Shown piece by piece: positions 641 through 35,574 of a stretch of DNA of 35,574 bases (positions within the stretch are counted from its first letter, which is position 1; the number at the start of each line of letters is the position of its first letter). Source of the DNA: a virus (taxonomy: Duplodnaviria > Caudoviricetes); IMG/VR virus record IMGVR_UViG_3300032212_000092, positions 1 to 35,574 of that record, one strand, 5' to 3'. The notes under the pieces were generated by a model, which saw only the letters and a program-made list of their open reading frames with translations, was not told the DNA's origin and made no database searches. The position numbers and the translations under genes were made by a program.

Positions 641-921
641 ACTACCTCCCACTCTCTAATTACCCGCGCATGATTAGACGGTATTTTTGATTGAATAAAA
701 CCCAAAGGCTGAAACTCTTTACCTCTAAAAATCGAACCCCAGCAATTAGGGTGTTTAGGCTTCAAATTAAGTCTATCCGCTACTGCTCTCAGGTCATCGG
801 TAGAAACGGATCCGTTTTGCTTTGCAATAAGTCGCGCATTAAACCGCATAGCATCAACAAACTCTTGGTTGTTTACTTCGACTCTTATCTGTCCTTGTTC
901 TTTTAGTTGTTTTCCGTTCAT
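637..921 (-). CDS. Conserved hypothetical phage protein (possibly DNA-binding)
   Basis: 94 aa, coupled to neighbours; PKHPNCWGSIF...SNHARVIREW pattern resembles small environmental-phage proteins. Confidence 0.65.
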   Translation of the reverse strand: MNGKQLKEQGQIRVEVNNQEFVDAMRFNARLIAKQNGSVSTDDLRAVADRLNLKPKHPNCWGSIFRGKEFQPLGFIQSKIPSNHARVIREWEVV

Positions 922-1784
922 TTTAAAGCCTCCACTAAAACCATATTATAATTGTTAATTTTATTTTTCAGATTTAAGTTTTCTTTTTTTATCAGTTTAT
1001 TATCTTTAAATTTTTTGTAATTTACGTGGTGATGCCACCTATTAAACCTCCACACAACCTTTGCAACGTCAGGATGTAGGTTTTCTATCATTTGAGATTT
1101 TGGTTTAGTTCCTTCTTTGTCGTAAAACTCCTTAGAATTACCCCCTTTCATTCTTTGCGTTGTTACTTTACCGCATAAAAAAGCATTAAACTGTATTGTA
1201 CAAAGGCCGTCCTTTAAAACCCGCAAAGACAGGTCTGTGTCTTCGTTATATCGACCCCTCCACCTATACTTGTGGGTATTAGAGATTAATAAGCAAGAAT
1301 AAATACGTGTATTAGTTATAAATGGCGGTACTGCATCGGTTTTCTTGCAAAAAGAATAATAGTTAAAACCTGCAACTGGCACGTTTTCATATCTGTCTAC
1401 AAAATCCTCTGCCGCGCATATTGTAGAATTACACTCGACTTCATATTTTTCGTTTTTATTTAAGTAATGAAAAGCGTCTAGGTTATCATCCATCACCCAA
1501 TGCCTAGAAAAACCTTGTAGTGTTGAATGATCTTTGCAAAAGTTACGTGCCGCGCCCGGACCTTTGCTTTTACTATTACCAATATCGTCGCAAGTATCGT
1601 AATTATCTAAATAATGATCCGGTAAAATTAAAATTGCCGCTTTTGTATTATTTAGATAGTTTTCATATTCGTGAGATTCAACAACAATATAGTGATCAAT
1701 CCCCATTAAATTAAGAGCTTTAGTGGTTAAGCCGTTTAGCCATCGGCCTTTTGACACTATATAAACTGGGTATCTATTTTTCAT
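918..1784 (-). CDS. GREB1-like / TET-associated (TAGT) glycosyltransferase, putative DNA-modifying
   Basis: YPVYIVSKGR, GPGAARNF, HWVMDDN (metal-binding DD), NTRIYSCLLI, WRGRYNEDTDLSLRVLK, QRMKGGN motifs. Confidence 0.75.
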   Translation of the reverse strand: MKNRYPVYIVSKGRWLNGLTTKALNLMGIDHYIVVESHEYENYLNNTKAAILILPDHYLDNYDTCDDIGNSKSKGPGAARNFCKDHSTLQGFSRHWVMDDNLDAFHYLNKNEKYEVECNSTICAAEDFVDRYENVPVAGFNYYSFCKKTDAVPPFITNTRIYSCLLISNTHKYRWRGRYNEDTDLSLRVLKDGLCTIQFNAFLCGKVTTQRMKGGNSKEFYDKEGTKPKSQMIENLHPDVAKVVWRFNRWHHHVNYKKFKDNKLIKKENLNLKNKINNYNMVLVEALK

Positions 1785-1989
1785 GTTTATAAACCTTTTT
1801 ATCTAGACCCCAATGAGACTTATAAGGATGCCATATACTTTTAGTTTTATGTGTTAGTTTTTGATTGATAATTTCAGCAAATTCCTTGTAATCCTTCTCG
1901 TTCTCAAATCTGATAATTAATTTTTTATACGGTTCTTTTTTTTCTTGTTTGAACTCAGGCATGTCAACCCACTCAGACTCAACATCCAT
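1774..1989 (-). CDS. Small partner protein of the glycosyltransferase
   Basis: EWVDMPEF...LIIRFENEKDYKEFAEIINQKLTHKTKSIWHP; overlaps the GT start; GGAG SD. Confidence 0.65.
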   Translation of the reverse strand: MDVESEWVDMPEFKQEKKEPYKKLIIRFENEKDYKEFAEIINQKLTHKTKSIWHPYKSHWGLDKKVYKHEK

Positions 1990-2083
1990 AACTAAAACTC
2001 CTTATGTGGAACAGTCATAAAATCAATAAACCGCTTAACCCATGTTTTACGGGTCATGTTTTTAAGGTCTTTGTTAAATATCT

Positions 2084-2272
2084 TCATAAAAAATCCCCCT
2101 CTCTTTGATCCCATGCCGGACTATCCTCCTCACGACATTCTTCTTTATATTCTAGGTTTTCAATCCGCGCCTCTTCACGGCGGTCACGTTCCAATTCTTC
2201 GCTATCACGGTTTTCTACCTTATCAATAACCGCATCCACTATGTTCATTGAGTCAATAATTCGCTTATTCAT
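2084..2272 (-). CDS. Acidic hypothetical protein
   Basis: 62 aa ORF in the leftward operon, GAGG SD. Confidence 0.55.
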   Translation of the reverse strand: MNKRIIDSMNIVDAVIDKVENRDSEELERDRREEARIENLEYKEECREEDSPAWDQREGDFL

Positions 2273-2273
2273 T

Positions 2274-2504
2274 TTATAACCTCTTTTTTATAAATTGCTG
2301 TACGTTTCCGTGATAGGTTTTATTGTTCCATCGCCACTTATTTTTACTAGGCCAATAATCGAGCCTTTTTTCTTGTAACGTCATACTGTAATGATAGTAA
2401 GTGTGTTTTGTGAATCCGCTTAAATCAGCCTTATCTAAATTATTTTCTCGCCTTTCTTTATCGGCTTGCTTCATCGCATTAAACACTTCACCCATGTCGC
2501 CCAT
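2274..2504 (-). CDS. Conserved hypothetical phage protein
   Basis: First gene of the leftward operon, GGGGGA SD; MGDMGE...LDYWPSKNKW. Confidence 0.65.
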   Translation of the reverse strand: MGDMGEVFNAMKQADKERRENNLDKADLSGFTKHTYYHYSMTLQEKRLDYWPSKNKWRWNNKTYHGNVQQFIKKRL

Positions 2505-2524
2505 ATCTATTCCCCCATTCGTTC

Positions 2525-2563
2525 TGTAAAGTATAATCTAATGAATTTAGAATGTAAAGCATA
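2525..2563 (-). promoter_or_regulatory. Leftward sigma70-like promoter overlapped by two TGTAAAGYATA motifs
   Basis: Minus strand TTTACA-17 bp-TATACT; motif copies at 2525 and 2553. Confidence 0.65.
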
Positions 2564-2568
2564 AGTGC

Positions 2569-2600
2569 AAAAAAAACCCAATTGTTTAAACTGGGTTTTG
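2569..2600 (-). terminator. Rho-independent terminator
   Basis: Minus strand AAAACCCA...TGGGTTTT stem running into T8. Confidence 0.65.
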
Positions 2601-2625
2601 ATTATAAGTTTTATCTCTATATTAG

Positions 2626-2634
2626 TTAGTCCAT
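2626..2634 (-). other. Met-Asp-stop minigene with SD
   Basis: Minus strand GAGGG-9 nt-ATG GAC TAA between a TTGTAA-17-TATAGT promoter (~2704-2732) and the 2569-2600 terminator. Confidence 0.35.
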
Positions 2635-2746
2635 GATTAATAGCCCTCTTTTGCGGTTAAAATTTATATATTATATTTAGCTTTATATATCTAACAATAA
2701 AAACTATAGACTATAAATATATACTTTACAAGTATTATTTTCAGGT

Positions 2747-2900
2747 AAAAAAAGACCCCAATTAAGAGGTCGAAGGTGGGGGAGTGAATTCGTAGGCCCT
2801 CTTTCAAGCCTGAGGGCGGAGGCCACTACCTACTTGCATCGTTTGGAGAATTTGAGTAGGATAGCTGTATCTAGTTCTACTTTAGAGGGTGGTACTAGAT
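2747..2900 (-). ncRNA. Candidate small RNA (~150 nt) with C/U-rich anti-SD loops
   Basis: TTGACA (2937-2932) and extended -10 TGnTATACT (2915-2907) upstream; three hairpins; terminator GACCTC-TTAATT-GGGGTC-T7 at 2771-2747; no ORF. Confidence 0.6.
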
Positions 2901-3120
2901 GGGAAGAGTATACCACATATAATTCCTATCATGTCAATACTTTTTACACCCTCAATATTTTTTACTAGGTCGGTACGGGTATACCAATGGTTCCGATAAT
3001 ACGCAGCGCACCAGAAACAAACAGTTTATGCCGCCACACCCTTTGGGCATAGGTTGACTACACTAGAGTGTTACTAAGTGTAAAAAGGTAGAGGTTAAAT
3101 GGGTGGAATGCGAGGTTATT

Positions 3121-3324
3121 ATGGATATTGAAAGAATATTAGAATTAGGAAAACAGCAAACAACCGATAAGGAGGTGCTCTACATGATTATATCAAACAG
3201 AATTACGCACTATCTTGGTGACAAAGATGGAGCTGCAATCAGCGGTAAAAACTTTGATTTGCTGGCTGATGATATTTTGAAATGGCATGAATCTCAGATG
3301 CAGACACAGACCAAGGCCGGATAA
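3121..3324 (+). CDS. Hypothetical protein
   Basis: ATG 3121 with GAGG SD; ORF track 3103-3324. Confidence 0.55.
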   Translation: MDIERILELGKQQTTDKEVLYMIISNRITHYLGDKDGAAISGKNFDLLADDILKWHESQMQTQTKAG

Positions 3325-3530
3325 GTTAACACCGTTTTGCGGGTATTAGTATAAGTGCTATGTATCGTGCGTACTTTAGGATGATAACCTAACAACTTAG
3401 TGATGAATTAAGTTGGGAGTACTCACTACAGATAGTATTTATATGGGTACGGGTAACAGGAACCTAAAGGCTTCCACCCTTGGGGAGACTATATCTAAAA
3501 TAAATAGAATAATAAAAAACAAAATAAAAC

Positions 3531-3563
3531 TTGTATTATGTAAAGCTATAACGTAAAGTATAA
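3531..3563 (+). promoter_or_regulatory. Early promoter with tandem GTAAAG operator
   Basis: TTGTAT-17-TAAAGT; GTAAAG at 3540 and 3553. Confidence 0.65.
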
Positions 3564-3592
3564 GGAACTAACCAACGATAGGAATATTAAAG

Positions 3593-3889
3593 ATGAAAAA
3601 GATAATTATTATAGGTTTTGCGGCGCTGCTTACAGGGTGTGGGTACGCGAATATTGATGCTTTAAAAAAAGATGCCCCGAAGAAATGGAAAAAGCAAGGG
3701 TTTGAGGTTGTTGATTATGAGGGTTTTGAATGGGGTTTATGGCTTGGTGGTGATTACGGAGGCGCAAAAGTTTGGCATAGGCTTAAAAAAATTCCAGATA
3801 ACGGGATCACTTATTCGGGATATTTGACCAAGTGGGGCGATGAAACGCATGTTTATGGTCCTATAGCTACTGATGCGATCAAGCCTTAG
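3593..3889 (+). CDS. Putative lipoprotein
   Basis: MKK + hydrophobic stretch + LTGC lipobox. Confidence 0.7.
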   Translation: MKKIIIIGFAALLTGCGYANIDALKKDAPKKWKKQGFEVVDYEGFEWGLWLGGDYGGAKVWHRLKKIPDNGITYSGYLTKWGDETHVYGPIATDAIKP

Positions 3890-3905
3890 ACGGAATAGGT
3901 GAGAT

Positions 3906-4274
3906 ATGAATTATACAGAAGACTTTGAACAACTATGGAAAATATATCCTAAAAGGGCTGGCGGGAACCCTAAACCAAAAGCATTTAAAGCCTTTACTGC
4001 AAGACTAAAAGAAAAGGTGCTTTATAGCGACTTACAAGCTGGCTTACTGAGATATTATAACTTTTGCAAGCAAACAGGCATATTAAACACACCTTATGTT
4101 ATGCAATCTTCCACGTTCTTCTCAGCTAACAGTGAGGCATGGTGCGAAGATTGGGAAGTACCTAAGCCAGAAGTAAAGGAAACATTAGTAGAAAAAGGCA
4201 AGCGGCTGAATATTATGGCTAAGGTCGGGGAAAGCATGAGCCAATACGAGAAACGAATAGCGCAAGCAAGATAA
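3906..4274 (+). CDS. Phage replication initiator/organiser-like protein (C-terminal-type domain only)
   Basis: FEQLWKIYPKRAGGNPKPKAFKAF...YVMQSSTFF, typical of lambdoid replication-protein C-terminal domains. Confidence 0.65.
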   Translation: MNYTEDFEQLWKIYPKRAGGNPKPKAFKAFTARLKEKVLYSDLQAGLLRYYNFCKQTGILNTPYVMQSSTFFSANSEAWCEDWEVPKPEVKETLVEKGKRLNIMAKVGESMSQYEKRIAQAR

Positions 4275-4296
4275 AAATATATTAAAGAGGTGAGGT

Positions 4297-4473
4297 ATGA
4301 AAAGCAGAAAACTATTAAATCCTGACGGGACAACACGGTCTATTGTTGTAGAAAAAGATAGTGGGGCGTTTAATGCTTTTACACCAAGGGAGGCGGCTGA
4401 AATAATAAACGAGCTTAAAGCTCAGTTATGGAATGGCATGCCGCTAGACAATCAGTTCTACAAGGCAAGGTAA
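4297..4473 (+). CDS. Hypothetical 58-aa protein (MKSRKLLNPDG...)
   Basis: Manually read ORF with strong GAGGTGAGG SD; same TAAAGAGGTGAGGYATGAA junction precedes the next gene. Confidence 0.55.
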   Translation: MKSRKLLNPDGTTRSIVVEKDSGAFNAFTPREAAEIINELKAQLWNGMPLDNQFYKAR

Positions 4474-4484
4474 AGAGGTGAGGC

Positions 4485-4685
4485 ATGAAGAAGTTAAAAT
4501 TAGGTAATTCAAGATGCCAGTATATCGGTTGTGATGAATATTTTAACTCTGTAGCGGCGTTTGATAAGCATAGAATCGAGGGTATTTGCGAGACTAGGCG
4601 ATGTATGACTAAAAAAGAGCTATTAAAGGCCGGACTCAGCGTAAATGCGGCGGGTTTCTGGGTAACCAGTACGTTTCGCCTTTGA
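4485..4685 (+). CDS. FDXHR-type phage zinc-binding protein
   Basis: CQYIGC...FNSVAAFDKHR...RRC motif. Confidence 0.65.
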   Translation: MKKLKLGNSRCQYIGCDEYFNSVAAFDKHRIEGICETRRCMTKKELLKAGLSVNAAGFWVTSTFRL

Positions 4686-4740
4686 AGACAAAACCGCTTA
4701 AATCGCCTGTATGAAAGTTTAGAAATAATTAAAGAAATAG

Positions 4741-4773
4741 TTGCATATCGTAAAGTTATGGTGTAAAGTATAT
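4741..4773 (+). promoter_or_regulatory. Early promoter with tandem GTAAAG operator
   Basis: TTGCAT-17-TAAAGT; GTAAAG at 4750 and 4763. Confidence 0.65.
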
Positions 4774-4791
4774 AAAACTTAGGAGAAAAAT

Positions 4792-5102
4792 ATGAAGCCA
4801 GAAACATTAAAAATAGACGAAGTTGAATATGTCCGTAAAGACGCGGCAAACGTAGTGCCAACTACTAAACAAATTGTTGTATTACAGCGCGGGTGGGTTG
4901 TTGTTGGTGACGTAAGCAAAACTAGCGAGGAGGTAACAATTAAAAGTTGCTCGATTATTCGTATTTGGGGTACGTGGAAAGGGTTGGGAGAGATTGCAGA
5001 AAACGGGAAAACAAGTAAAACTGTTTTAGACTCTTGTCCAGATGTTATCGTACACCCTTTGTCTGTAGTGCTTTATATGAATGTAAATATGAGTAATTGG
5101 TA

Positions 5103-5103
<1 letters not shown>
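4792..5103 (+). CDS. DUF6948-like beta-rich phage protein
   Basis: VVLQRGWVVVG...IIRIWG...GLGEIAENG pattern; AGGAG SD; stop overlaps the next start (TAATG). Confidence 0.6.
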
Positions 5104-5423
<320 letters not shown>

Positions 5424-5425
5424 TA

Positions 5426-5577
5426 TGGACTGCATTAAAACAGCCTTAATTCTATCAGTCGGCTTTATTATCGGCGGTCAAGTTATGTTATTACAACCTA
5501 AACCGGAACCGATTAAGATTTGCTTTAAATACACTACTGAGCGTTTAACGATGAAACATAGGGTTAAGTGTCCATAA
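5426..5577 (+). CDS. Small protein with hydrophobic N-terminus (MDCIKTALILSVG...)
   Basis: Manually read ~50-aa ORF whose stop lies at the first attC-like site. Confidence 0.45.
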
Positions 5578-5707
5578 CATAACGCTAACTATTGAGGGGC
5601 GCACGATGAGCGAAGATTATATTTTATTCCCAGAGGATAAATTAAAAATGGATAAAGCTAGATGGAAACGCAGCTCAAGTGCGTCCAGCTCGAATGACTT
5701 GTTATGC
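5577..5707 (+). mobile_element. attC-like imperfect palindrome with the start of the next gene inside its loop
   Basis: ACATAAC...TTGAG-GGGCGCAC [loop] GTGCGTCC-AG-CTCGA...GTTATGC. Confidence 0.5.
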
Positions 5708-5917
5708 ATAAAACCAAACGTGGAAGACGTTGCTAAGTATCTTACTGATTACTGGGGAACTTATATAGAAATGCAGGTAGGAGTGAGAGACTACACAGCA
5801 AAAACAATTATTGAAGATGCTCTTTATGGATTAGGTGCTGCATTGAATGATGATTATAGATTTGCACAGGGGTTTGATAAGTTTAAAAAAGACCTCTTAG
5901 CTTATTTAGATGCATAA
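5606..5917 (+). CDS. Hypothetical protein in a cassette-like segment
   Basis: Reads through the right arm of the palindrome (SASSSNDLLC); stop codon inside GCATAAC. Confidence 0.65.
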   Translation: MSEDYILFPEDKLKMDKARWKRSSSASSSNDLLCIKPNVEDVAKYLTDYWGTYIEMQVGVRDYTAKTIIEDALYGLGAALNDDYRFAQGFDKFKKDLLAYLDA

Positions 5918-5963
5918 CAGCCAAGATAACCAGCCGCAGGTCTGTGTTATCGATCTGTTATAT
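5912..5963 (+). mobile_element. Short attC-like palindrome
   Basis: GCATAAC-AGCCAA-GATAAC-CAG...CTG-T-GTTATC-GATCT-GTTATAT. Confidence 0.5.
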
Positions 5964-6001
5964 AAATATAGGTAAGTCGTAAACGATTAATGAGGTGAGA
6001 T

Positions 6002-6178
6002 ATGAAAAAGAAAATAAGCGCTTTCGAGTACGCAATGAATAACGCCATTAATAGGTCTGACTTAAATGAAAACTGCGAGCCAAGAACAAAGCAGGAAGAA
6101 GCGGCCATCATAGAAGAAGAACTGGTCGATCAACTTAGCAGAATGAGAAACGCGACAACTGGCGAACCAATTATTTAA
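6002..6178 (+). CDS. Hypothetical 58-aa protein
   Basis: Manually read ORF, GAGGTGA SD. Confidence 0.55.
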   Translation: MKKKISAFEYAMNNAINRSDLNENCEPRTKQEEAAIIEEELVDQLSRMRNATTGEPII

Positions 6179-6204
6179 CCACTAACAGCACAGAGGGTGT
6201 GTAA

Positions 6205-6393
6205 ATGAATAAAGAAATGCAAATTAAGAAAGATGAAACTGAACAGTTTTTTAAAGATGCTTTCTGTGCGGAAAAAGCCGAGTTCCAATTTGGTAAAAGT
6301 CTGTCTGATTTTAGAGAGGCAGGGATTGTTAAAATAGTTACGGGCGACAAAAGAGAAGATTTTTATGTTGCGGTATTAAAGATTAACCAATAA
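6205..6393 (+). CDS. Hypothetical protein
   Basis: ORF track, GAGGGTG SD. Confidence 0.55.
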   Translation: MNKEMQIKKDETEQFFKDAFCAEKAEFQFGKSLSDFREAGIVKIVTGDKREDFYVAVLKINQ

Positions 6394-6431
6394 CTAAACC
6401 AATAACTCAACAGATATAGAGGGTGGTAGGA

Positions 6432-6632
6432 ATGATACAGCTAGAACTAGACGGCACTTTAAAGAAACTTGTTTGTGATGATGGATTCAAAAGACTGTGC
6501 TTTATCTCAACGGACGGCGAGGGCTTTGACGTTGAAACTATCGAAGAACTTTTGCAGGGCGCAGGAGTTATTAGTCTTAGTAAAATGGACGGCAAGAATG
6601 TTGAGATAGCTATAAATATTAGTGATGTTTAA
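6432..6632 (+). CDS. Hypothetical protein
   Basis: ATG 6432 after GAGGGTGGTAGG. Confidence 0.55.
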   Translation: MIQLELDGTLKKLVCDDGFKRLCFISTDGEGFDVETIEELLQGAGVISLSKMDGKNVEIAINISDV

Positions 6633-6683
6633 ATTAACCCAACACCCCCACTATAGCGGGTAAGTAAATAACAGGATAGAGAA

Positions 6684-6860
6684 ATGCTAACAGAAATAAG
6701 ATTAAACGATATAAGTGAGTTCGGGCAAAAAGAGTTGGTTTTTCGCTTTGGAGACAGGTATCAAGCCGTTGCCTTTAATCCTGCTGAAAAAAAGGAAGAT
6801 GTTATTCATCGTCTTCACGACTTGGCAGAAAACATAGCGCACGACATTTTAATTGAATAA
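6684..6860 (+). CDS. Hypothetical 58-aa protein
   Basis: Manually read ORF, AGGA SD. Confidence 0.5.
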   Translation: MLTEIRLNDISEFGQKELVFRFGDRYQAVAFNPAEKKEDVIHRLHDLAENIAHDILIE

Positions 6861-6876
6861 GAGTTAAACGATTTAT

Positions 6877-7008
6877 GGGTAGAAGCATGTAGTCATGCAG
6901 GCTAGAAAACGGGGATGCCGTCAAGCGTAGAGAGCAGAGATTAAGATCTCTGACGATACGATGCCCGTTGGAGACAAGCAAGGAAGTAACGCCCTTGCCT
7001 ACCCACCA
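6877..7008 (+). ncRNA. tRNA-like structured RNA ending in ACCA
   Basis: GGGTAG/CTACCC acceptor-like stem, GCATG/CATGC hairpin, long AACGGG/CCCGTT arm with CAGAGAT/ATCTCTG hairpin, GCAAGG/CCTTGC T-like arm, 3' A-CCA. Confidence 0.55.
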
Positions 7009-7023
7009 TACAGGAGAAAGGAA

Positions 7024-7212
7024 ATGACGGAAGCGAATACAAAAAACTTGGTTGAGCGCGTTGTTAGTTTGGGGGACCTGTATGCCGATAGCTGCGTATC
7101 ATGTGGAGCGAGGGCAGAATGGGGTATTGCAACAAAAAGCGGCGCAGAAGGTTGCGTGGAAGCAATTAAAACAGGTCAAACATACTGTAAAGCTGATTTA
7201 CCTAAAATCTAA
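7024..7212 (+). CDS. Small Cys-rich protein in a cassette-like segment
   Basis: AGGA SD; CVSC...C...C; reads through GGTTGAGCGCGTTGTTAGTT (attC right-arm-like); followed by AGCTAAC. Confidence 0.5.
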   Translation: MTEANTKNLVERVVSLGDLYADSCVSCGARAEWGIATKSGAEGCVEAIKTGQTYCKADLPKI

Positions 7213-7239
7213 AGCTAACAACAAAAGAATAAAGGTGAA

Positions 7240-7425
7240 GTGATGAGTTTTGAAGAAGCATGGGTTAGGTCTGGGTATGATGATCAATACGAAGAAATCG
7301 GCAAAGAATTATATAATCTTGCTATAGATGAAGCGGTTAAAGTTGCAAAAGAAACAATGTATAACACTAACCGCAACGACACGCCCGTTAAAATCAAAGA
7401 GTTAAAGAATAAAGGTGATGTATGA
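7240..7425 (+). CDS. Hypothetical protein
   Basis: ORF track, AAGGTG SD. Confidence 0.55.
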   Translation: MMSFEEAWVRSGYDDQYEEIGKELYNLAIDEAVKVAKETMYNTNRNDTPVKIKELKNKGDV

Positions 7426-7588
7426 GCAAGCACCGATGGTGGAGAAAAGATAGATATGGCTATCCAATAGAATATATCGTTAATAGCCCTGTTAAAAATA
7501 TAATTAGAGTTATCGACATGAATATAAAAAAGTTATTTGGCAAGGATTTTAAAAACAAGCCGCCAACCAACAAGCTAAAGGATAAAGC

Positions 7589-7876
7589 ATGAACGCAAAC
7601 GCAAACAATTTATATTTATTAGCTGATGAAATGAAAGTATGGCCTGATGGTGTTAATGCTGAAACAGCCGTTAAAATTATGAGAGAGGCAGCAGACCAAT
7701 TCGAACAAAAAGAGAAAGAGTTGCAGGGTTATAAAAAGACTCTTGAAAGATTATCAAGCATGGAAGCGTTTGAAATGTCACGCGCTATACATGATGTTTC
7801 AGACAAAGAGCTATTGGCGCGAATTGATTACGCAAGGGCTGCCATTGGAAATCCTAGAGGTGGTGAGAGTGAGTGA
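7589..7876 (+). CDS. Hypothetical protein
   Basis: ORF track, AAGGA SD. Confidence 0.6.
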   Translation: MNANANNLYLLADEMKVWPDGVNAETAVKIMREAADQFEQKEKELQGYKKTLERLSSMEAFEMSRAIHDVSDKELLARIDYARAAIGNPRGGESE

Positions 7877-8342
7877 GCCAGTAATATTAAGTCGAGAAGA
7901 TTGGAATAGCGTTACAAAAGAAAACGCAGAGTTAAAAAAGAAGTGCTCCGCTGAACAAATTAACAACGCTTACGCAGAAACAATAGAACGACAAGCCGCT
8001 GAGATTAGCAAGCTAAAGCAGAGTGAGAATAAGTTAGGGCAGAAGTTAGATGCCACCAAAAAGCAGCGTGACAGCCTTGCAAACTTTAATCCTGACTGGG
8101 ATATGCTGGAGGCTACACAAGAATCATTGCGTGAACACATGGTTTTATGCAGAGAACTAAAAGAACGCTTAAAAAACTGCCTTAACCATGACAGCTTAAT
8201 TGCTACTCGTAGTGAGCTGGATAAGAAAGATAAACGCATTACTAAGCTTAAAGGTGCTTTCGATGAATTTGACAAATTAACATACTCCTTCGACAGCAGA
8301 AAAAAGATGGAAGCAATAAGGGCAACCGCTAAAGGTGAATAG
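7869..8342 (+). CDS. Coiled-coil hypothetical protein
   Basis: Probable GTG start at 7869 after GAGGTGG; heptad-rich; NPDWDMLEATQESLREHM motif. Confidence 0.6.
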   Translation: MSEPVILSREDWNSVTKENAELKKKCSAEQINNAYAETIERQAAEISKLKQSENKLGQKLDATKKQRDSLANFNPDWDMLEATQESLREHMVLCRELKERLKNCLNHDSLIATRSELDKKDKRITKLKGAFDEFDKLTYSFDSRKKMEAIRATAKGE

Positions 8343-8392
8343 TATGTCGATTTCTCAAAAGTATATGCAATCAAGTAAAAGTATGCGAGAGG

Positions 8393-8575
8393 GTGAATAG
8401 TATGGGAATGATTTTAGAGATATACATAAATGACAAAGAACTTATTGAAGATTTAAAAGCCGTTGGTTCAGCAGATTTAAAAAATCACTTCTTACCGAAA
8501 GCGGGTATAAAAGCGGATAGCGTTACATTTTACACAGTTGAACCACCAAAGGATAATAACAATGAAAACAAATGA
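8393..8575 (+). CDS. Hypothetical protein
   Basis: ORF track; true start may be ATG 8402 or 8408. Confidence 0.5.
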   Translation: MNSMGMILEIYINDKELIEDLKAVGSADLKNHFLPKAGIKADSVTFYTVEPPKDNNNENK

Positions 8576-8918
8576 GCATGGATATAGAACCGTAGAATTT
8601 GGCGGGATTAGGGTAAACCCCAAAAAAGAATACTTAACCGACTTTGACAAATCAGTTATCAGGGAAATATTACAATCAAAAAATGAGGATATAGCCTCAC
8701 GAGTGTGGGTCAGGCGTGTTCACAGCAGATTAGCGGCGTTCTTTAGTTTGGATGACCAAATCATAAGCGACCAGACCGCAATGGCTAGAAAGCGTTTAAA
8801 ATACGCTGAGAAGCAGCAAACAGAGCGCATAAAGGCGTGTTCCATTGGTGCGCTGGCTGAAAAATTCCAATGCAAAGAATATTTAATTGAAAAACAGATA
8901 AATGAGTTTATGCAATGA
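8562..8918 (+). CDS. Hypothetical protein, possible C-terminal HTH
   Basis: AAGGA SD before ATG 8562; SIGALAEKFQCKEYLI resembles an HTH. Confidence 0.55.
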   Translation: MKTNEHGYRTVEFGGIRVNPKKEYLTDFDKSVIREILQSKNEDIASRVWVRRVHSRLAAFFSLDDQIISDQTAMARKRLKYAEKQQTERIKACSIGALAEKFQCKEYLIEKQINEFMQ

Positions 8919-9250
8919 GGGTTGATATTAAGCCTCTTTCAGTTAATGAGGCGTGGAAAGGCCGCAGATTTAAGACGGACGCATATAAAAAATATGAAAA
9001 AGACGTTTTAAAGCAACTTAAGCCAATGAATATACCTGATGGAGAGCTAGAAATAGTTATACAGGTAGGTTTTAGCAATAAAGGTTCAGACATTGATAAC
9101 ATAGCCAAGCCATTTATAGATATTTTACAAAAGAAGTACGGATTTAATGATTCAAGAGCGTATGCGCTTGTTTTATTGAAAAGAATCGTACCAAAAGGAC
9201 AGGAATATATTAGTTTTTCTATATTTGAATGTTTAAAAATAATTGATTAA
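8915..9250 (+). CDS. rusA: RusA-like Holliday junction resolvase
   Basis: KPLSVNEAWKGRRF...SDIDNIAKPFIDIL...NDS catalytic pattern. Confidence 0.8.
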   Translation: MRVDIKPLSVNEAWKGRRFKTDAYKKYEKDVLKQLKPMNIPDGELEIVIQVGFSNKGSDIDNIAKPFIDILQKKYGFNDSRAYALVLLKRIVPKGQEYISFSIFECLKIID

Positions 9251-9274
9251 TGTAAATTAATAGTGTAAAGTATA
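9243..9274 (+). promoter_or_regulatory. Promoter with tandem GTAAA(G/T) operator upstream of the ibrB-X-ibrA operon
   Basis: TTGATT-17-TAAAGT; GTAAAT 9252, GTAAAG 9265. Confidence 0.6.
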
Positions 9275-9294
9275 GGAAACAAGAGGGGGAAATA

Positions 9295-9981
9295 ATGAGA
9301 ATAGATTTAGTAGAAAGCATAAATGATGTGGTTAATATAATTGATAAAATGCCATTAGATGAAAAAGTAAAGGCGTTGAACCACATTAAAATGAGTATAT
9401 CTGAGGTTAGCCCGTTCCACTCTGAGCCGGTTGACTGTGTTGTTTGGGTGAAAGGGGATAAAGTTAAGTCTAATGATTATAACCCTAATACTGTAGCCCC
9501 TCCTGAAATGGAATTATTAAGGCTCTCAATTAGCAATGACGGCTATACTCAGCCAATAGTTTCTATGGAGGATAAAGAGGAGTTTGAGGTTATTGATGGG
9601 TTTCACCGTAACAGAGTAGGAAAAGAGTGTGAAGACATAAAAGAAAGAGTGCATGGATATTTGCCTTTGGTTGTCATAAAGAAAGAGCGCGAAAACAAGT
9701 CAGATAGGATGACTTCAACAATTCGTCATAATCGCGCAAGGGGCAAGCATCGCGTAGATGCAATGTCAGATATTGTTATTGAGCTAAAAAAGAGAAACTG
9801 GACAAGCGAAAAAATAGGTCGAGAGCTTGGAATGGATGAAGATGAGGTTTTAAGGCTTTGTCAAATATCGGGTTTAGCAGAGGTTTTCTCTGATACAGAA
9901 TTTTCCAGAGCGTGGGACGTAGATATTTTTGATGAAAATAATTACGAGGCTTTATTTTCCGAGGAGATGGAAAGTGAATAG
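9295..9981 (+). CDS. ibrB: IbrB-like ParB/Srx N-terminal domain protein
   Basis: NDYNPNTVAPPEMELLRLSI..DGYTQPIV, VIDGFHR, STIRHNRARGKH, LGMDEDEVLRLCQ. Confidence 0.85.
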   Translation: MRIDLVESINDVVNIIDKMPLDEKVKALNHIKMSISEVSPFHSEPVDCVVWVKGDKVKSNDYNPNTVAPPEMELLRLSISNDGYTQPIVSMEDKEEFEVIDGFHRNRVGKECEDIKERVHGYLPLVVIKKERENKSDRMTSTIRHNRARGKHRVDAMSDIVIELKKRNWTSEKIGRELGMDEDEVLRLCQISGLAEVFSDTEFSRAWDVDIFDENNYEALFSEEMESE

Positions 9982-10396
9982 GGTTTATCATACGTGGGAT
10001 AAATGGGAGTGCTACCCTGCTGGATTCTTTGATGCTAAATGCAGGAATGGAGAAACAACAGAGGAGGCGGAGTTAACATACAAAAAACTGCTATCTGATA
10101 ACGCTATGTTTTCCGCTTCGTTGTTCAGTCTTATCGAGCAATGGCCTAATTCATGTGAGCATAACTTAACAAATGAGAAAATGAACCGTATCGCATGGCT
10201 TGGCCAAGCTGCTTTAGCTTACGCTTATCATATACCCGCTAAATTTAGGAAAGGGTATTACATGTTGAGCGCTGATGAGAGAAAAGCGGCAGATAAAACA
10301 GCGCTTAAATATCTTAATAAGTGGCTTTCTAGTAAGGGCGAAAAAAATATAACACTGGAGGAGGCTGGCGCAACTTCTGTTGCTAACCAATATTAG
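9974..10396 (+). CDS. Conserved hypothetical protein between ibrB and ibrA
   Basis: GTG 9974 after GAGGAG; WDKWECYPAGFF...WPNSCEHNLTN..NRIAWLGQAA. Confidence 0.7.
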   Translation: MNRVYHTWDKWECYPAGFFDAKCRNGETTEEAELTYKKLLSDNAMFSASLFSLIEQWPNSCEHNLTNEKMNRIAWLGQAALAYAYHIPAKFRKGYYMLSADERKAADKTALKYLNKWLSSKGEKNITLEEAGATSVANQY

Positions 10397-10403
10397 GTGA
10401 ATT

Positions 10404-11639
10404 ATGTCTATAAAATTATATAAAAAGCACAGCGTTTTAGATGCAGCAAGAAAGAGAATTCAGTATGCGTTTGATAACTTTGAAAAACATTACGTTAGTT
10501 TTAGTGGGGGTAAAGATAGCTCTGTAATGTTTCACTTAGTTATGGAGGAGGCCATAAAAAGAAATGTTGTTGTTGGTGTTCTTCTAATAGATTTTGAAGC
10601 GCAATATAAAGCAACTTCAGATCACGCTATGGAAATGTTTGAGCGGTATGCAGATAATATTGATGTTCATTGGGTTTGTTTGCCTATGGCCTTGAGGAAC
10701 GCGGTTAGTAATTTCGAGCCAAAATGGATTTGCTGGGATGAAGACGAAAAAGAGAATTGGGTCAGGGAATATCCAGACCACCCTTCTGTTATAACAGACG
10801 TTAATCATTACCCGTTTTTCCAGAAAGGTATGGAATTTGAGGAGTTTATCGTTTTGTTTGGCGAGTGGTACGGAGGAGGTGATTTAACAGCGGCCTTTAT
10901 TGGTATTCGTTGTGATGAAAGCCTAAACCGATTTAGAACGATAGCCACAAAAAGAAAAGATATGTTTGATAAGAAGCAATTTACAACCAAAGTTGTTGAC
11001 GAAACGTATAATGTTTATCCAATTTATGATTGGAGAACTGAGGATATTTGGGTTTATCACGGTATGTTTCCAAATAACCAGCACAATAAAATATATGACT
11101 TAATGAATATGGCGGGTGTTAAATTGAGTCAGCAGCGATTATGCCAACCATATGGTGACGACCAAAGAAGGGGTTTATTTTTGTATCACATCTTAGAGCC
11201 TGAAACATGGCGAAAGATTGTTGCGCGGGTAAATGGGGTAAATAGTGGCTCTTTGTATATACAGGAGAGCGGAAGTATAAACGGGAATAGATATATAACG
11301 AAACCAGACAACCATACTTACAAGAGTTACTGTGAGCTTTTACTGTCTACTTTACCTATTCCAACACAAAAGCATTATGTGAATAAATTTAAAGTGTTTT
11401 TAAAGTGGTGGTACAAACGCGGATACGATAAAGGTATTCCAGACGAAGCGCCTAGATTGTTAGAGAGCCAGTATCTGGCCCCCTCATGGCGTAGAATCTG
11501 TAAAACATTATTGAGAAATGATTATTGGTGTAAAGGTTTGAGAATGAGTCAACCAAAAAGCGAGGCTTATGGAAAATACCTGGATATAAAGAAAGCTAAA
11601 AAGAAAGCGAAGGTTAAGCCGTTCAGAATGAGCGCGTAA
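10404..11639 (+). CDS. ibrA: IbrA-like PAPS-reductase-family (PP-loop) protein with DUF3440-like C-terminus
   Basis: YVSFSGGKDS PP-loop, GIRCDESLNRF, YPIYDWRTEDIW, QRLCQPYG, SWRRICKTLLRNDYWC. Confidence 0.85.
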   Translation: MSIKLYKKHSVLDAARKRIQYAFDNFEKHYVSFSGGKDSSVMFHLVMEEAIKRNVVVGVLLIDFEAQYKATSDHAMEMFERYADNIDVHWVCLPMALRNAVSNFEPKWICWDEDEKENWVREYPDHPSVITDVNHYPFFQKGMEFEEFIVLFGEWYGGGDLTAAFIGIRCDESLNRFRTIATKRKDMFDKKQFTTKVVDETYNVYPIYDWRTEDIWVYHGMFPNNQHNKIYDLMNMAGVKLSQQRLCQPYGDDQRRGLFLYHILEPETWRKIVARVNGVNSGSLYIQESGSINGNRYITKPDNHTYKSYCELLLSTLPIPTQKHYVNKFKVFLKWWYKRGYDKGIPDEAPRLLESQYLAPSWRRICKTLLRNDYWCKGLRMSQPKSEAYGKYLDIKKAKKKAKVKPFRMSA

Positions 11640-35344: not shown

Positions 35345-35371
35345 TCTGTTTCTCCGTTTGCTTTTTTATCT

Positions 35372-35407
35372 ATTGTAAAGTACAATCACCTCATTGTAAA
35401 GTACAAA
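35372..35407. promoter_or_regulatory. Divergent promoters with two palindromic operators ATTGTA-AAG-TACAA(T/A)
   Basis: Copies at 35372 and 35393 (21-bp spacing); minus strand TTTACA-17-TACAAT toward erf. Confidence 0.7.
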
Positions 35408-35418
35408 GGGTTAAAAAG

Positions 35419-35574
35419 ATGAAAATAACAGTAAAAAATATTAAAAAGGCTACGAATAGCAAAACAGCAGACGAAGCAGCAGCTAAAATTAAATGCTCAC
35501 GTCAAGCTTTATATAATTGGGAAAAAGAAGGGTTTATTGGGGAAAAGACGACTAAGGGATTAAATATTGCGAAC
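35419..35574 (+). CDS. Cro-like HTH regulator (69 aa); continues across the junction to a stop at 159-161
   Basis: MKITVKNIKKATNSKTADEAAAKIKCSRQALYNWEKEG...; missed by the linear ORF track. Confidence 0.75.
   Translation, partial: MKITVKNIKKATNSKTADEAAAKIKCSRQALYNWEKEGFIGEKTTKGLNIAN
35468..35574. repeat. Terminal direct repeat (copy 2)
   Basis: Identical to 1-107. Confidence 0.95.

Follow-up and report, generated by a model that had tools for sequence, protein, structure and literature searches.

The window, a viral DNA record of 35,574 nucleotides, carries on its minus strand the gene of a predicted small RNA that belongs to a real, conserved and so far uncatalogued family of phage small RNAs (sRNAs). 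Seven marine phage elements form this family (the window, G001 to G005 and L133), joined by one divergent relative (L171). Just upstream of the promoter the members possess a complement of the first hairpin loop that changes together with this loop from phage to phage. This co-varying complement is a new, testable feature; like the family itself and the divergent structured leader, it had escaped an earlier sequence-only reading.

The RNA gene and its surroundings

A sequence-only reading had proposed a minus-strand extended -10 promoter, an RNA of about 150 nt free of open reading frames and an intrinsic terminator. These signals were verified in the sequence (Table 1), with a predicted RNA length of 154 nt, and the predicted fold places all four C-rich words pointed out earlier in loops or linkers. 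The sole closed frame of at least 8 codons in the RNA is an AUG frame of 11 codons without a preceding Shine-Dalgarno (SD) sequence. Judged by promoter and terminator signals and by stem covariation, the gene is likely transcribed. The fold of the window RNA alone was only modestly stable (z -1.8); the support for its structure comes from the relatives. Two other candidates were rejected: a palindrome around the -10 box as co-varying feature (covariation P 0.13), and a cis-antisense RNA to a rightward transcript, as no conserved promoter for such a transcript was seen by eye beyond the 3' end of the terminator.

Table 1. Features of the RNA locus in the window, its divergent leader and a candidate target
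Feature	Position	Strand	Basis or remark
Predicted small RNA, 154 nt	2747..2900	-	start predicted at 2900 (A of AUCUAG)
Hairpin 1, AUCUAGU/ACUAGAU stem, 18-nt loop, seed CACCCUC at 2891-2885	2869..2900	-	predicted fold
Hairpin 2, loop carrying AAUUCUCC	2822..2865	-	predicted fold
Hairpin 3, not common to the family	2796..2817	-	predicted fold
C-rich single-stranded linker, CUCCCCCACCUU at 2784-2773	2772..2795	-	predicted fold
Intrinsic terminator, stem 2771-2754, T run 2753-2747	2747..2771	-	sequence
Extended -10 TGGTATACT, at -15 from predicted start	2907..2915	-	sequence
Invariant TAAAAAG and TTGACA (-35 box at 2937-2932, 19-nt spacer)	2932..2944	-	family comparison
Upstream site complementary to hairpin 1, CTAGT 2968-2964, GAGGGTG 2953-2947	2947..2968	-	seed comparison
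Two operator-like direct repeats, 18-nt period (2965-2954, 2947-2936)	2936..2965	-	sequence
Conserved structured leader, RBS region 3101-3115	2965..3120	+	family comparison
First rightward ORF, 67 aa	3121..3324	+	no Pfam family; longer 3103 frame without PHROG family
Candidate trans target, RBS of ORF 6432-6632, 12-nt complement of loop 1	6417..6428	+	borderline

The window, a complete circular phage record, has a terminal repeat of 107 nt and P22-like portal, coat and head-closure genes. Its terminase shares 61 % identity with that of Pseudoalteromonas phage H6/1 and 59 % with that of Vibrio phage 1.182.O; a proteobacterial host is plausible. A leftward cluster (2504 and below) precedes the RNA element, and a rightward operon with, among others, a replication protein at 3906 follows it. 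Divergent operons flank the RNA gene also in G004, G005 and L133; in G002 and G003 all flanking genes are oriented against the RNA. Elsewhere in the window, an ORF built of Gly-Asp/Asn/Tyr dipeptide repeats was observed (5103-5423, plus strand), and a ParB-like plus PAPS-reductase-like pair (9295-11639, plus strand) together with a TET-associated glycosyltransferase (918-1784, minus strand) suggests DNA modification in this phage. A GTAAAGTATA-like motif (at most one mismatch) occupies eight intergenic sites within 2524-9275 and 35370-35410, two of them 21 nt apart in front of a gene with a weak helix-turn-helix match at 35419; the motif is likely a phage promoter or operator.

The structured leader of the rightward operon occurs in the window, G002, G004 and L147 and partly in G001 and L133. 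It combines a ACACCCUU loop with a fixed ribosome-binding site (RBS) region and precedes unrelated small ORFs. Its hairpins co-vary, 8 of 31 predicted pairs being changed on both sides among four sequences, and in L147 it is present without an adjoining RNA. The leader in the window had no Rfam match. A non-coding element of about 300 nt that continues the leader was observed in L171 (~8950-9270, minus strand) and in G003 (~480-750 nt upstream of its RNA); for this continuation neither an Rfam match nor a match to isolated phages was obtained.

Members, distribution and covariation

Common to all seven members are TAAAAAGTATTGACA, a 5' AUCURG/CYAGAU hairpin, additional hairpins and a terminator. 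The stem of hairpin 1 is present throughout, with one A-U to G-C change in three members, and each RNA ends in a U-tailed hairpin. The box TGnTAnnnT was located at -15 in five members and, in G002, at -17; the promoter of G005 is canonical, with 17-nt spacing. RNA lengths range from 102 to 168 nt, the loops differ widely between subgroups, and modules are swapped.

G005 (the same as L002, one of two loci) was located via the replication protein, independently of the RNA pattern. It shows the promoter core of the window and also its 5' stem, in which one pair is altered on both sides. A pattern derived from the comparison of G005 with the window returned 88 stretches, among which five records were recognized as members by upstream sequence, spacing and terminator; a second pattern returned 35 stretches with the same five records. 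A metagenome scan yielded four stretches: L133 was new, two repeated G003 and G004, and one, matching the window in length and position, was excluded. Since TTGACA and the 5' stem were built into the search patterns, their conservation is in part a product of the search, unlike that of the -10 position, hairpin 2, the terminator and the upstream site, on which the patterns did not draw. An alignment search revealed seven loci, among them L171, whose divergent RNA (fold z -3.4) stands behind TTGACG-18-TATAAT in inverted orientation relative to the replication gene. This RNA has 25 of 31 bases in common with hairpin 3 and linker of G001, a score above all 300 shuffles, and is devoid of hairpin 1 and of the GAGGG site; complementarity of its 5' end to its own upstream region was at chance level (P 0.19-0.49).

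Structural evidence is provided by G001 and G005, which are colinear and were compared over helices set by hand: of 23 stem pairs, 12 are identical, 9 differ in both bases and 2 in one base, and none is broken. Stems 2 to 4 share 14 of 34 bases and the loops are mostly alike. Among the five other members, 89 % of the cells in hairpins 1 and 2 are paired and four pairs differ in both bases. Values as high came from 4 of 500 shuffles, a result inflated by relatedness. Fold z-scores were more negative on the RNA strand in five of the seven members and favoured the opposite strand in G003 and G005. G is scarce in unpaired positions (30 of 442 bases) compared with paired ones (149 of 537), and no coding frame with an SD sequence is common to the members. 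Family, stem covariation and strand bias thus uphold the earlier proposal of a non-coding minus-strand RNA gene with anti-SD-like loops. A GGA-rich plus-strand CsrA sponge of the CsrB/RsmZ type was dismissed, as GGA loops are scarce on both strands (the RNA strand has 0-2 GGA motifs, the opposite one 2-4, of which 0-2 are unpaired). Few phage sRNA families rest on covariation.

Rfam returned no match at gathering score for the window, none for L171, and three chance matches at E <= 5 for L001, L133 and L094, none of them to C4. Searches with blastn against isolated phages gave chance pieces of 22-53 nt or nothing, and three matches of the loop-1 16-mer in viral contigs were all unrelated. GTDB genomes had no match in one search and two in another, both non-members. 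A promoter-only pattern had 19 matches, 4 to known members and 15 without the hairpin. The covariance model R1 recovered at E < 1 only its five training members from 25 sources, with G005 at E 2.6, and nothing from 48 further sources; it therefore falls short of G001, G005 and L171. No description of this RNA family was found in the literature, judged by title or abstract start. One study mined IMG/VR for 8495 candidate RNAs (PMC10690425). Family words and dataset numbers were unmatched in its searchable supplements, and gapped alignments would hide exact words, so part of the family may be among its unnamed candidates.

The carrier phages have 0-13 genes in common per pair and differ in terminase and head type, which marks the RNA element as a mobile cassette travelling among phages of little shared gene content; no protein family was common to all members in our gene calls. 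Contigs of run X1 contained further sequences that share only the core 2931-2966. One X1 contig keeps the C-rich linker, with two extra bases, and the terminator (window 2747-2793) behind a different upstream sequence, possibly a minimal version of the RNA. A strand-change joint was not seen in contigs of the runs X1 to X3, which by their nature cannot show absence. Directly downstream of the RNA in G004 and G005 tRNA genes were noted (L145 14969-15305, L146 6022-6098; Pro, Leu, Gln; Arg). On the opposite strand, structured-looking inserts between conserved flanks lie ~420-570 nt upstream of the RNA in G002 and ~420-640 nt upstream in G004; the G002 insert, in which tRNA-like ends flank a long central part, was not called by ARAGORN.

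The upstream complement of hairpin 1

In all seven members, the same strand carries just upstream of TAAAAAG the motif CTRGT, followed after 5-10 nt by a 7-mer that begins with GAG and is complementary to the loop of hairpin 1. Site and seed are GAGGGUG/CACCCUC in the window, GAGGUCG/CGACCUC in G004, GAGGGCG/CGCCCUU in G005 and GAGAGAG/CCUUCUC in G002. Own pairs matched better than crossed pairs (P 0.001 for the loop, 0.0006 for loop plus arm; 5040 permutations). Against 916-7984 background windows of the respective genome, the match reached P <= 0.016 in six of the seven; G003 had a weak match (P 0.057 and 0.107), G002 a modest one. Combined over five lineages, taking the weaker of related pairs, P was ~1e-6, part of which reflects a shared ancestral GAG; the site was picked after inspection and the members are related. 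In G004 the two copies have unequal internal spacing (5 versus 9 nt), a pattern easier to reconcile with base pairing than with protein binding. The family thereby supplies seven natural, swappable seed-site pairs.

The complement could also shape the fold of a longer RNA. Extension of the transcript by 80 nt upstream lowered the predicted formation of hairpin 1 from at least 0.91 to at most 0.37 in five of the seven members; the fold of G002 did not switch. A conserved upstream promoter for such a transcript was not found on this strand in the members, and the long-range duplex was stronger on the opposite strand in five of the seven.

Ribosome-binding sites, mode of action and known RNAs

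Pairing with start regions was analysed on our gene calls, with the 3121 start added by hand, and on 150 sampled start regions. Twenty-six of 27 hand-defined loops paired better with start regions than with coding windows. Twenty beat their own shuffles. The mean z was just -0.85, so composition explains a large part of the pairing with RBSs; hairpin-1 loops beat shuffles in three of the seven members (z -2.5 to -2.9). In these pairing models the loops are anti-SD in a general sense, predicted to be open for RBSs at large. We tentatively favour a trans-acting anti-SD sRNA whose likely targets are mRNAs of the host and some early ones of the phage, and whose hairpin 1 is turned off by fold-back within a longer transcript. 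The phage gene would yield a multi-hairpin RNA whose C/U-rich loops pair with SD regions, probably in messages of the host and in a small number of early ones of the phage, and would dampen translation of these messages. In a longer same-strand transcript the upstream site would pair with hairpin 1, hide the seed and so switch the RNA off, akin to the upstream target sites of the P4 CI RNA. If the loops target host messages, the RNA would offer the phage a small multi-seed instrument for taking over its host.

A silencer tuned to several RBSs of its own phage, acting as developmental or lysogeny switch in place of CI, had been put forward by the sequence-only reading and appears unlikely. Of the multi-target silencer the generic RBS pairing held up, and own-phage targets lacked support beyond one borderline site. 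The words noted earlier at 6192, 8388 and 22320 are present, as is the 12-nt match at 6417; the latter is conspicuous, with P 0.021 relative to shuffles, the greatest length among 63 RNA-by-genome pairs and second rank among 68 start regions, but was singled out post hoc. Own targets ranked 34 of 68 (22320 site), 13 (6205 start) and 7 (8408 start). Exact complements of at least 8 nt occurred in 7 of 68 called start regions, where 1000 dinucleotide shuffles gave 4.0 on average (P 0.14). The window RNA scored alike on three other phages (9/81, 7/58 and 6/78). Over 24 loops the own genome had a mean rank of 4.46 out of 8 with 4.5 expected by chance (P 0.47), mean pairing energies were no better on own genomes, and two-segment sites there gave no outlier; one such site in G002 was discarded, lying within a coding region and being equalled by a cross-genome score. 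The first rightward gene behind the leader was the top own target in two of four phages with the leader (G003, 1/78; G004, 1/60), but its RBS ranked only 20/68 in the window and 33/58 in G002. The gene position between divergent operons in four phages resembles that of the lambdoid cI, which lies between divergent operons, yet the gene orientation in G002 and G003 departs from it. Tyrosine integrase (PF00589), serine recombinase (PF07508) and S24 peptidase (PF00717) were found in none of five genomes, thus a lysogeny switch is unsupported; small HTH_3 matches occurred in four of the five. The phage may persist in a non-integrating state. Next to the 12-nt antisense site, two words of 10 nt at 6434-6451 repeat the sequence of the RNA itself. 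The cluster of one antisense and two sense words (6417-6451; P 0.027) was rejected, being equalled or beaten by three cross pairs, and no relatives of ORF 6432 were present among 25 candidate stretches.

It is quite unlikely that the RNA is a protein decoy, binding Hfq, a ribosomal protein or another C/U-binding factor, with loops that matter as composition only. Loop divergence between subgroups, variable length and swapped modules would fit, and the phage RNA VpdS competes for Hfq (PMC12197685). However, G001 and G005 keep their loop words while the stems turn over, the three hairpin-1 loops exceed composition at start regions, and the seed-site covariation is left unexplained.

Still more doubtful is a mobile control cassette with an RNA in the repressor's place: hairpin 1 would be a guide to the phage's own divergent promoter, as DNA or nascent transcript, the 7-nt seed would define compatibility groups among non-integrating marine phages, and the other loops would throttle host translation. 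If pairing controls the promoter, this would amount to RNA self-recognition in phages without lysogeny genes. The narrower version, in which hairpin 1 pairs with divergent-promoter DNA on the rightward template strand, switches promoters and sets phage compatibility by its seed, is improbable to a slightly greater degree. The only partner co-varying with the seed sits in the promoter region, no upstream promoter is required, the rightward leader starts exactly at the CTAGT half of the site, and hairpin 1 and GAGGG site are missing together in L171. Against it, 7 + 5 bp are too short to invade duplex DNA unaided, a protein shared by all members was not among our gene calls, and a rightward promoter was scored only in G005. 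Just as improbable is a seed-site match that is a DNA feature unrelated to RNA action, such as paired protein sites or template switching in an old inverted repeat. The inverted repeat around the promoter with its 18-nt direct repeats and the several X1 contigs sharing this core alone agree with it; the interrupted, unevenly spaced blocks of G004 and several differences that are G-U compatible on the RNA strand (G001, G002, G005) do not.

Among known RNAs, the family resembles the cuckoo RNAs in shape and the C4 and CI RNAs in having a variable seed with a cis complement, but lacks defining traits of each. RNAIII and RsaE/RoxS are chromosomal Firmicutes RNAs with fixed motifs, whose C-rich single strands are predicted to cover SD sequences. 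The family is similarly C-rich, with UCCC in six of seven members, and differs in being phage-borne and without an Rfam match. The cuckoo or CcsR RNAs of Alphaproteobacteria (RSs0680, SmelA075, SmelA099) likewise have 2-4 adjacent hairpins, variable stems with compensatory changes and anti-SD-like loops (PMC4615179). As described there, every cuckoo loop carries CCUCCUCCC, which occurs in none of the seven family RNAs; unlike these RNAs, the family has mutually different loops, a phage location, its own promoter and the co-varying upstream complement. The C4 antisense RNA of P1/P7 (RF01695) is also a phage RNA with a variable, specificity-setting loop seed that co-varies with a cis site (PMC5320573). 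It is described with a three-stem fold and an RNase P cut at GGW, whereas the family has an independent hairpin chain from AUCU at the predicted start, its own terminator, no Rfam match and no lysogeny genes seen in five genomes. The P4 CI RNA likewise has an upstream complement in the same strand, seqA, and in addition a downstream seqC (PMC4825925); in the family the terminator follows, and no outlier site was found in own genomes. Short and long isoforms of the IsrK locus of Gifsy-1 pair mutually, as proposed for the family, but the long IsrK form arises when read-through at the 3' side enters coding frames (PMC4825925), and the family partner lies 5' of the promoter. VpdS and PreS, from temperate phages, are stand-alone sRNAs acting on host and phage mRNAs (PMC12197685), a likeness at the level of description. 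A trait of Hfq-dependent trans-acting sRNAs, an own promoter together with a U-tailed terminator, is present in the family.
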